This document shows positions 3,001 through 6,000 of a DNA stretch of 19,302 nt, piece after piece. The DNA lies in IMG/VR virus record IMGVR_UViG_2671180673_000002. One strand, written 5' to 3'. This DNA comes from a virus (taxonomy: Duplodnaviria > Heunggongvirae > Uroviricota > Caudoviricetes). Numbering within the stretch: position 1 is the stretch's first letter; the number at the start of each line of letters is the position of its first letter. The position numbers are program-made.

Positions 3001-6000
3001 CATGAATCCGTCACCGGTTGTCCAGCCAGGGTTAGCCAGAACATACTGATATCCAGCGATTTTTTCCTGCAGGGATTTCACCCGGCTGGCCTGTTCATCA
3101 ATCAGCCGGTTCTGCTCTGCCAGCGCCGCCCGTGTTCGTCCTTCATTATCTGAGGCTTCAGGCAAAGACATTGACGGCGTTTTATGCGCGATTTCATCTA
3201 TCGTCAGTGCATACTGGCGCGCTGACTCCCTGGCCTGCTCCTGATTCTGGTACAGCGTATACCATGCTGCTGCCCCCAGCATCACCAGTCCGGGTACGCC
3301 ACCAACCAGTCCCAACGCACCAGTCATCAGACGTGAGCCCACCGCCGTTGTACTGTTCAGCTCATTCTGGGCTGCGGTTCTGGCAGCAATATTTCTGTTC
3401 AGGCGTTCCTGTGTGGCCGCCAGACGGGCTTCTGCAGCAATCTGCATCTCCGTCCCGCGGGCTGCCGCCACAGCCTGCTGTGCACGGTACACGGCTGCCC
3501 TTGCCCGCGCCGTGGCAATCTGCGTCCCCCTGAGCTGTGCTTCCGCCAGTGCCACTTCATTACGTGCTGCCGTCACAAGTCCTGCCGTGGCAGACACCGC
3601 TCCGGAGGCCATATTGCCAAAGTACCGGGCAACCCCGACGGCAACCAGCGCCCCCGCGGCTGTTGCCACATTATCAATATTACCGGCAACACCGTTCAGC
3701 ACGCCGGAGAGCGTTTTCGTCGCTCCGCTGGCTTCATTCGCGCCACCCACCCAGGCCATAAAGGCGTTTTCCACCTTTGTGATCCCGTCAGAGACCGTTT
3801 CCGGCATGGCGGCATATTCATCACGCAATACCCCCAGCTGGCTGATTAACGCAGGAACGACTTTATCCGCCGTCAGTTTGCCGTCGTCCGCCATCGCCTT
3901 AAGGTCTTTACGGGCCACGCCCATACCCGCAGCCAGTGCACGTACGATCCGGTCTCCGCTTTCATTGACCGAATTAAATTCCTCACCGCGTAACACACCC
4001 TGTGCCAGCGCCTGGCTGAACTGGGTGATCACCGAGCCCGCCTCTGCCGTACTGGCACCGGAGATTTTCAGCCCCGTGGAAATGGCCTCCGTCACCTTCA
4101 GCACATCATCAGCACTGTAACCATATTCACGCATTGAGGCTGCCGAGCGGGCAAACAGGGCCGCATTATCTGAAAATGCCGTGCCCGTCCGCTGGCTGAT
4201 ATCCATCAGCACTTTCTGTGATGACGAAAATTCATCGGATGACTGCGACGCCTGTTTCAGTCGGGCATTCACGGAACTCCATTCATCGGCCAGAGAAATC
4301 AGGTGTCCGGTGGCAAAGGCACCTGCAAATGCCCCCGCCGTTCCGGCAGCTGAAGCGCGGATTTCCGTCAACTGGCTGTTCAGCTCAGCCAGGGCGCGTC
4401 GCTGCTCCCGGGCGACTGCGGCAGCCTGACGCCCGCCATTCTGCAGGGTCCGGTAATATTCACTGCCCATGCGGGAAGCCCGCTGGATCTCCGACTGGAA
4501 TGACTGCGAATTTGCCGAAATTTTGATAATCAGTTCACGTAACGTCGCCATTCACCTTTCTCCGGGCGTAAAAAAACCGCCTCAGCGGTTCTCATCATTC
4601 ATGACTGTGCTGCGAAGCTCAGCGCGTCTTCCAGCGCCGCAAACGGATCCACCTCCGGCTTATCCTCATCCTCGCCCCAGCAGAGCATGGCGTCCTTCAG
4701 TGCAACATTCATCCCCTGTGCCCCAAAAACCGCTTTCACGATCTGTGCATTACGGATATCCCCGCGCTCATCACCCAGCGGGGATACCCTGTCGAACTCC
4801 ATCCACATCATCGCCTCGCTCACACTCAGGCTGTGCCGCAGTTCGGATAAGGTGCGCCCCAGACGGAGCGCAAGTCGCATCAGAAAGCGAATTTCCGGGC
4901 GGGCTACTTTTTTCTGGCCGACTCTGCATCAGCGATCAGTTCCAGTGCCTGACGCAGCAACCGGGCATGTACCGGACCATAGACGGCCAGCACCTGCTCA
5001 CGGTCGTCCGGAGCGAACACCCGCTGCAGATCCGTATCACACAGGACATCGCAGAACAGCGTCACATCCGCTTCCAGGTTACGGCGGGTTTTCGCCACCA
5101 CCGACAGGGTATCGTCATCCTCTCCATCACCATTGAGCACTTCCTGCCACAGATACCAGGCCTCTGCCGAAGGCTCCCGCAGCACCACGCTGACATTACC
5201 CCATTCCGGCACCTTCACCGTTTTATGACGAAACCCTGACAGTCTGGCCAGCGCCAGCGTTTTCAGATCCTTTTTCATGATGACCCATCCCCTTATCCGG
5301 CGGCTGCGCTCACTGTCACGGTGCATTCAACAGACGTCACACTCTGTGCTTTCTCTGCCGAATCGGTCACCACGCAGGTATATTTCCCCGCATCAGCGGA
5401 CTGCGCTCCTGGCTTACTGAAGGTGTCTGTCGTCTGCCCGTCAACCGGCTGACCATCCTTCTTCCAGGCGTATTTATACGGCGGCGTTCCCCCGTTGGCA
5501 CTGACTGACATTGTCAGCAGCGCACCTGTATTCACGGTAAGTGTTTTATCCAGATTTTTCACAAACGCCAGCGGTACCACAAAGGACACCGGTTTGCCTT
5601 TCATACGCAGTGAAAACGTTGCTGCCACCACGCCGTTGGTACCGGATGACCAGGTGTGCTGACGCACTTCCGCCAGGAACTTAAAGCCCTTACCGGACGG
5701 AAACAGCACCTTAAACGCATACAACGCGTCATTGTCATAGGCATCACGCAGGGCGTTCTGGGCCTGATTCAGATAAAAATTACCCGACATGGAAATCTCA
5801 GACGACGCCCCCAGACCGTTGATGTTCTCCTGCTCGGTGGAGCAGAGCGTGGTCACATCAATATCCTGTTTCTGACCGGCGGTGAACTGGACTTCCTTGA
5901 TGGTGCAGTCCAGGCGCAGATATTCCGCCTTATCCATAGTTTCAGCAGTCGCCGGGGCAGATGAAATCATCACCTGCGTCAGCTGTGAGCGTTCATACAA

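Follow-up and report, generated by a model that had tools for sequence, protein, structure and literature searches.

A probable programmed -1 ribosomal frameshift at A_AAA_AAG joins the tail assembly chaperone genes G and T of a lambdoid Escherichia coli prophage

The tail assembly chaperone G/GT programmed -1 frameshift is a class of recoding event whose label reportedly goes back to Xu, Hendrix and Duda in 2004 (Mol Cell). In phage lambda, G and the fusion protein GT are made at a ratio of 30:1, with G binding the tape measure and T recruiting the major tail protein; both are needed for tail assembly, neither is found in virions, and the slippage involves tRNA-Lys carrying mnm5s2U (Atkins et al. 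2016, PMC5009743). For phages HK97 and HK544, curated records give the homologous gene pair as a two-piece joined coding sequence (CDS) that bears a -1 or programmed frameshift label. Here we analyse the G/T pair of IMG/VR virus record IMGVR_UViG_2671180673_000002, a stretch of 19,302 nucleotides (nt) that is called the window throughout. We assign a probability of about 0.93 to the reading that this pair is expressed by programmed -1 ribosomal frameshifting, as the tail-chaperone pair of an E. coli lambdoid prophage of the Stx-phage type with an HK97-like tail. The features on which this reading depends are the following.

4904..5278, minus strand: gene G, a tail assembly chaperone of the HK97 gp13 family, 124 residues, from the open reading frame (ORF) and its translation.
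4907..4913, minus strand (read 4913..4907): slippery heptamer A_AAA_AAG, in the phase X_XXY_YYZ.
4599..4907, minus strand: segment in the -1 frame, to be read only after the shift, 102 codons, VARPEIRFLMRLALRLGRT...FAAQS, closed by the TGA at 4601..4599.
4599..5278, minus strand: the whole GT recoding unit, a predicted 226-residue G-T fusion with both domains.
4859..4933, minus strand: 75-nt reporter-tested stretch, with 0 mismatches to the insert in Supplementary Table S2 of PMC3711429.
4878..4880, minus strand: internal ATG, taken in public annotation as the start of a 93-residue standalone T, with weak pairing to the anti-Shine-Dalgarno (anti-SD) sequence.

Gene G starts with the ATG at 5278 and stops at the TAG at 4906..4904; its zero-frame product has the C-terminus ...ADAESARKK, and the 3' end of the gene reads ...GCC AGA AAA AAG TAG. 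The heptamer begins at ORF index 365 (365 mod 3 = 2) and spans Lys123-Lys124, the final two sense codons, with the TAG abutting it at zero spacer. Stops block the -1 frame over most of G. It opens 22 nt ahead of the G stop, and A_AAA_AAG at 4913..4907 is the sole in-phase slippery heptamer inside this 22-nt overlap. The -1 segment, which starts VARPEIRFLM... and ends AAQS, consists of a 9-residue linker and then the T domain; the predicted fusion junction is ...SARKK/VARPEIRF.... An earlier note on this DNA, made from its sequence alone, had proposed a G/GT unit at 4599-5278 with a slippery site over the final sense codons of G, a -1 frame continuing for about 100 codons and the junction peptide SARKKVARPEIRF. 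All of this stands: the coordinates are the exact span from G start to T stop on the minus strand, the site covers the last two sense codons, the -1 continuation runs for 102 codons and the peptide matches the translated -1 junction.

Both parts of the unit match known families. G exceeds the gathering threshold (25 bits) of Pfam PF06222, Phage_TAC_1, over the full profile (206 bits, E = 1.7e-61, profile positions 1-124 of 124), and HK97 gp13 scores 203 bits against the same profile. A comparison of G with PF06894, Phage_TAC_2, the family to which lambda G belongs (207 bits), gave no match at E <= 0.01; G is functionally like lambda G yet lies outside the lambda G sequence family. The -1 extension exceeds the threshold (25.9 bits) of PF06223, Phage_tail_T (67.4 bits, E = 1.5e-18, profile positions 1-71 of 73), for which lambda T gives 54 bits. 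On the fusion, PF06222 covers residues 1-124 and PF06223 residues 152-222, and no NCBIfam family matches the fusion at E <= 0.01. The GT predicted for the window is, as judged from these matches, an HK97-type chaperone fused to a lambda-type T domain. The G/T pair is flanked by the major tail gene and the tape-measure gene.

The frameshift site is already known. Sharma et al. (2014, PMC4066793, Table S4) list a prophage cluster, A_AAA_AAG_25, with 53 genes and ECs1801 as its representative; it is marked 'tail assembly chaperone; [true]', meaning that programmed -1 ribosomal frameshifting 'can be safely inferred', and it corresponds to GeneTack programmed-frameshift cluster number 10 (Table S7). 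Antonov et al. (2013, PMC3711429) tested two members of an HK97-like 'phage tail assembly chaperone' cluster by measuring protein from a GST-MBP reporter in E. coli, and obtained 6% frameshifting for a G_GGA_AAG form and 7% +/- 0.79 for a construct whose 75-nt insert, printed in their Supplementary Table S2, is identical to the window. Frameshifting at a low, fixed frequency is thus on record for this very sequence. The earlier note had asked for a dual-luciferase frameshift reporter, and that experiment has in effect been published in equivalent form. The same note had called the site a conserved tail-chaperone recoding signal, which domains, relatives, conservation and the reporter result on the exact 75-nt sequence all support; the G_GGA_AAG that it gives as the lambda heptamer agrees with the lambda sequence.

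We considered how often such a site would arise by chance. The string AAAAAAG is not rare, with 9 copies over both strands of the window. Among the 20 minus-strand ORFs (5,521 codons), A_AAA_AAG occurs in phase once only, on the last codons of G. When every type of X_XXY_YYZ is counted, the in-phase heptamers in these ORFs number 13, or about 0.24% per codon, and the chance of finding one over the 7 codon positions of the overlap is about 1.6%. The G site alone among the 13 gives a long -1 product bearing a Pfam domain. In E. coli genes, in-phase A_AAA_AAG is strongly avoided (z = -10.1; PMC4066793, Table S3). The second-longest -1 continuation among the 13 belongs to a C_CCG_GGC at 7376..7382 (minus strand), in phase inside the ORF 7546..7220, from which the -1 frame stays open for 76 codons over the next gene; this heptamer is most likely a chance occurrence.

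Conservation was examined in 160 viral contigs and in 12 annotated relatives whose identity goes as low as 33%. A scan of viral contigs with one protein as the query found nothing beyond relatives at 98-100% identity and was repeated with a diverged alignment. Together these gave 169 analysable family loci with 19 distinct 3' contexts, at 33-100% identity. None of the 169 lacks an in-phase N_NNA_AAG at the 3' end of G, and in each the -1 extension is 94-102 codons long. The heptamer is A_AAA_AAG at 85 loci (7 contexts), among them Vibrio phage Pm34, Serratia phage OS31 and Burkholderia phages phi644-2 and phiE125; it is the lambda heptamer G_GGA_AAG at 76 loci (6 contexts); and at 8 loci (6 contexts) the A_AAG tetramer only is present, as G_GAA_AAG, G_GCA_AAG or A_GCA_AAG. 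The use of A_AAA_AAG instead of G_GGA_AAG is therefore not unusual, being one of the two common forms in the family. The two alternate at one position within the family, which fits their near-equal measured shiftiness: with no stimulator, the IS911 stimulators or the IS3 stimulators, A_AAA_AAG gave 0.29, 4.3 and 39% and G_GGA_AAG 0.28, 3.8 and 43% (Sharma et al., PMC4066793).

Finer details of the alignment point the same way. The Lys at the shift site falls in the same column of the protein alignment, within one codon, among relatives. AAAAAAG-TAG is kept in 80 of 80 close relatives, even though substitutions occur in the codons immediately before it (A to V, E to G). In 689R5, Kp4885-3 and L174 the frames overlap by merely 7 nt, so that a shift is possible on that heptamer alone. 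The linker and the start of T are conserved as protein in the -1 frame in 12 diverged members (V..P...FLM.LALR.GRTL); conservation of the linker ahead of the internal Met implies that translation enters T upstream of the ATG at 4880.

Two local geometries among the relatives deserve separate mention. In Escherichia phage vB_EcoS-689R5, which is 68% identical, G ends GTT AAA AAA AAG TAG, with 8 A in a row, and the heptamer is directly preceded by a TAA in the -1 frame, hence the overlap of exactly 7 nt; this 8-A run could add some transcriptional slippage to the ribosomal slippage. In Serratia phage OS31 and the Burkholderia phages, A_AAA_AAG lies 24-30 nt ahead of the G stop, and that stop overlaps a T-frame ATG (TGATG). 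Such an arrangement would allow termination-reinitiation coupling, with a standalone T made beside GT.

Ribosomal frameshifting has two competitors as the source of T. One holds that T is an independent 93-residue protein made from the ATG at 4880, either de novo or by re-initiation 24 nt past the G stop, the heptamer being incidental. It draws on the RefSeq and GenBank annotation of a standalone CDS from that ATG (Sakai has the still shorter ECs_1802), on the family-wide conservation of the Met in the FLM motif, and on the TGATG overlap in OS31 and Burkholderia relatives, which is compatible with translational coupling. The ATG at 4880, however, has the weakest anti-SD pairing of 13 starts in the window (-3.5 kcal/mol, versus -5.8 to -12.8 for the others), a value near the background median and equalled by 42% of random windows; initiation there as the main route to T was rejected on this ground. 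The V..P...FL residues ahead of the Met are conserved in the -1 frame, and across the family that frame always opens just enough to take in an in-phase N_NNA_AAG, down to the overlaps of 7 nt. The identical sequence frameshifts at 7% (PMC3711429), and lambda T is described solely as part of the GT fusion (PMC5009743). We regard independent synthesis of T as very improbable; the ATG at 4880 probably does no more than encode an internal Met of GT.

The other competitor places the change in the RNA: RNA polymerase would stutter on the A-run and put one extra A into some transcripts, from which GT could be read in a single frame. The site is a homopolymer run, extended to 8 A in 689R5, one added A encodes the same protein (...RKKV...), and the published reporter read protein only (PMC3711429). 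The run in the window, on the other hand, is only 6 A long, and realignment is typical of homopolymers of at least 8 nt (PMC3711429). Many members of the same architecture are without any such run (G_GGA_AAG, G_GAA_AAG, G_GCA_AAG, A_GCA_AAG) and keep the A_AAG element, which suits slippage of tRNA-Lys; the G_GGA_AAG sibling gives a similar 6% (PMC3711429). Transcriptional slippage is accordingly unlikely, and we give it an even lower chance than independent initiation. Transcriptional slippage, or a slip at either Lys123 or Lys124, would all yield the identical ...ARKKV... peptide, and because each route leaves the same ...RKKV... sequence, mass spectrometry of the junction peptide would confirm the fusion and not the mechanism or the slipping codon.

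For this locus the sequence anatomy, the domain identities, the conservation of the site and the frameshifting of the exact sequence in an E. coli reporter are shown, while the ribosomal nature of the shift, the in-vivo proportion of G to GT and a part in tail assembly are inferred. Several points weigh against programmed ribosomal frameshifting here. The reporter measured protein and hence does not separate ribosomal from transcriptional slippage. Production of GT in vivo and a need for it in tail assembly are, for this prophage, carried over by analogy from lambda. Every inspected public record of the element lists T as a separate gene. A stimulator of frameshifting was sought upstream and downstream of the heptamer, and none was supported. 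Finally, the 7% seen in native context far exceeds the 0.29% of the bare heptamer in the work of Sharma et al.; the two assays differ.

The candidate stimulators were of three kinds. An upstream SD-like element in the manner of dnaX was rejected, the anti-SD duplex being -3.0 kcal/mol and close to the background median; Sharma et al. likewise find no SD (PMC4066793, Table S8). A downstream stimulatory structure was rejected as unsupported: folds of 137 nt and 67 nt have z = -1.4 and -1.8 against shuffles, and the computed folds reproduce the structure of Sharma et al., of about 130 nt with a 5-nt spacer and a 7-base-pair closing stem, for which their ddG of 0.020 +/- 0.023 agrees with the weak z values. 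A conserved hairpin of 7-8 base pairs about 35 nt downstream, GCGCUCC-N4-GGGGCGC, was also rejected, with compensatory change in 0 of 7 pairs; it is disrupted in OS31 and in a Burkholderia phage, its sequence encodes the conserved LALR(L/M)GR motif, and it is treated as a by-product of coding. The window thus lacks support for the dnaX/IS3-type arrangement of an SD-like element 6-17 nt upstream and/or a stable structure 5-9 nt downstream.

A more tentative idea is that the abutting zero-frame stop itself acts as the stimulator, slow termination with AAG in the P site promoting the -1 slip. A stop directly abutting the site (0 nt) is found in 9 of the 19 distinct contexts, as TAG in the window, 689R5 and Pm34 and as TAA in Kp4885-3, L173, L174 and L176. 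If true, this could account for the difference between about 7% in native context and about 0.3% for the bare heptamer in a reporter free of stimulators, with neither RNA structure nor SD. These two values were obtained in different assays, and in the G_GGA_AAG sibling, where the stop comes a codon later, frameshifting is much the same at 6%. We consider a role for the abutting stop doubtful.

Under the frameshifting reading, expression of the pair would proceed as follows. Most ribosomes would read ...AGA AAA AAG and stop at the TAG, yielding the 124-residue G. A minority, about 7% in the reporter, would slip back one base on A_AAA_AAG in a tandem slip, the tRNA-Lys molecules on AAA and AAG re-pairing with AAA and AAA, and would then read GTA GCC CGC... 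in the -1 frame to give the 226-residue GT. If lambda is a guide, the tape-measure protein H would be coated by many G molecules and a few of GT, the T domain would recruit the major tail protein, and the tube would polymerise to the length set by H, with both G and GT left out of the virion.

The genes throughout this part of the window are all on the minus strand, in the order V (6009..5293), G (5278..4904), the -1 ORF (to 4599) and H (4551..1309). The two flanking genes are these.

1309..4551, minus strand: tape-measure protein H, 1080 residues, with matches to Pfam PF06120 (E = 5e-90), PF20155 and PF09718.
5293..6009, minus strand: major tail tube protein, 238 residues, with a C-terminal immunoglobulin-like domain, called 'major tail subunit' in RefSeq.

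On the strength of the lambda work (PMC5009743), H presumably binds G as well as the G portion of GT. The T domain presumably has the major tail tube protein as its partner. In this tube protein, Pfam Ig_3, Ig_2 and I-set score above their cut-offs, in frame, over residues ~150-227, and the tail-tube families fall below theirs (Phage_TTP_11, 24.6 versus 28.4 bits; Phage_tail_2, 23.1 versus 23.8).

A terminator-like hairpin with a T-run (GAACCGC-UGAG-GCGGUUU followed by UUUU) is present at 4566..4591 on the minus strand, in the 47-nt gap that separates the T stop (4599) from the H start (4551), with a local fold of -14.6 kcal/mol (z = -1.8). Folding reveals this hairpin, and a pattern-based terminator scan gave no hit for it, we think because a stem extension that tolerates G-U pairs consumes the T-run. 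At the same place Sakai Sp9 has a hairpin and T-run with another stem sequence (ACCTGC-TGTG-GCAGGT-TTTTTTT), and in HK97 and HK544 putative terminators are annotated just upstream of the tape-measure genes. The hairpin may be a partial terminator that sets the ratio of chaperone to tape-measure expression. A short way ahead of the major tail start at 6009 there are two further terminator-like stem-loops with T-runs, at 6032..6046 and 6073..6089 (minus strand); they are within shuffle expectation (2 found, mean 1.4), and HK97 and HK544 have a putative terminator annotated at the equivalent position, in the gp11/gp12 interval.

The element is widespread. Copies of the 801-nt region at 100% identity occur in many E. 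coli chromosomal prophages, and the element or its close relatives are found in 1,246 of 5,426 complete E. coli genomes (about 23%) and in 92 phage records, mostly of Stx-converting phages. On identical or near-identical copies, RefSeq PGAP and several inspected GenBank phage records give T as a standalone 93-residue CDS from the ATG at 4880, with no slippage join, under the label 'phage tail assembly protein T'; the Sakai annotation is shorter, ECs_1802 being an ORF of 69 residues. The annotated feature is as follows.

4599..4880, minus strand (L001:6461-6742; L016:25472-25681): standalone or truncated T of RefSeq PGAP, GenBank and Sakai.

As a consequence, the true 226-residue GT is absent from those protein sets. 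The practical value of the present analysis lies in annotation: GT belongs in the records as a ribosomal-slippage join and not as a standalone T. It adds little scientifically, this being a textbook recoding event of long-tailed phages whose exact sequence has been both catalogued and reporter-tested.

The described systems resemble the window to different degrees. E. coli dnaX and the transposases of the IS3 family (IS911, IS150, IS2) share with it A_AAA_AAG and tandem tRNA-Lys slippage. They depend, however, on an upstream SD-like element and/or a stem-loop or pseudoknot 5-8 nt downstream and reach tens of percent, whereas the window has no supported stimulator and an efficiency of 7%. Lambda is closer in function: there too a low-frequency -1 shift late in G leads into a PF06223 T domain directly upstream of the tape-measure gene. 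The two differ in that lambda G belongs to PF06894 and window G to PF06222, so that the T domain family only is common to both; in that G_GGA_AAG lies 15 nt ahead of the stop in lambda, whereas A_AAA_AAG abuts it in the window; in the T extension past the G stop, 138 codons versus 101; and in frequency, lambda's 30:1 corresponding to about 3% (PMC5009743) versus 7% for the window sequence (PMC3711429).

HK97 gp13/gp14, and likewise HK544, combine PF06222 with a T domain at the same position in the tail module, with a curated -1 frameshift and an A-site AAG codon at the homologous position, within one codon. HK97 gp13 has about 63% protein identity to window G. Its best candidate site, from a reading of the sequence and not a curated position, is G_GAA_AAG, 15 nt ahead of the stop, where the A-site tRNA only could re-pair perfectly; HK97 also has an additional moron gene, gp15, that separates T from the tape-measure gene and is lacking in the window. 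The closest match is prophage Sp9 of E. coli O157:H7 Sakai (ECs1801/ECs1802), which belongs to cluster A_AAA_AAG_25 of Sharma et al. and to the 'Phage_TAC' cluster of Antonov et al. (fs-gene 15618692). The stem sequence of its intergenic hairpin after T differs from that of the window, and the proteins differ at 2 residues of G and 3 of the T part. ECs_1801 is orthologous to window G at 97% (363 of 375 nt and 122 of 124 residues identical), both GT products are 226 residues long, and the gene pair, its order, the heptamer, the TAG and the junction are those of the window.

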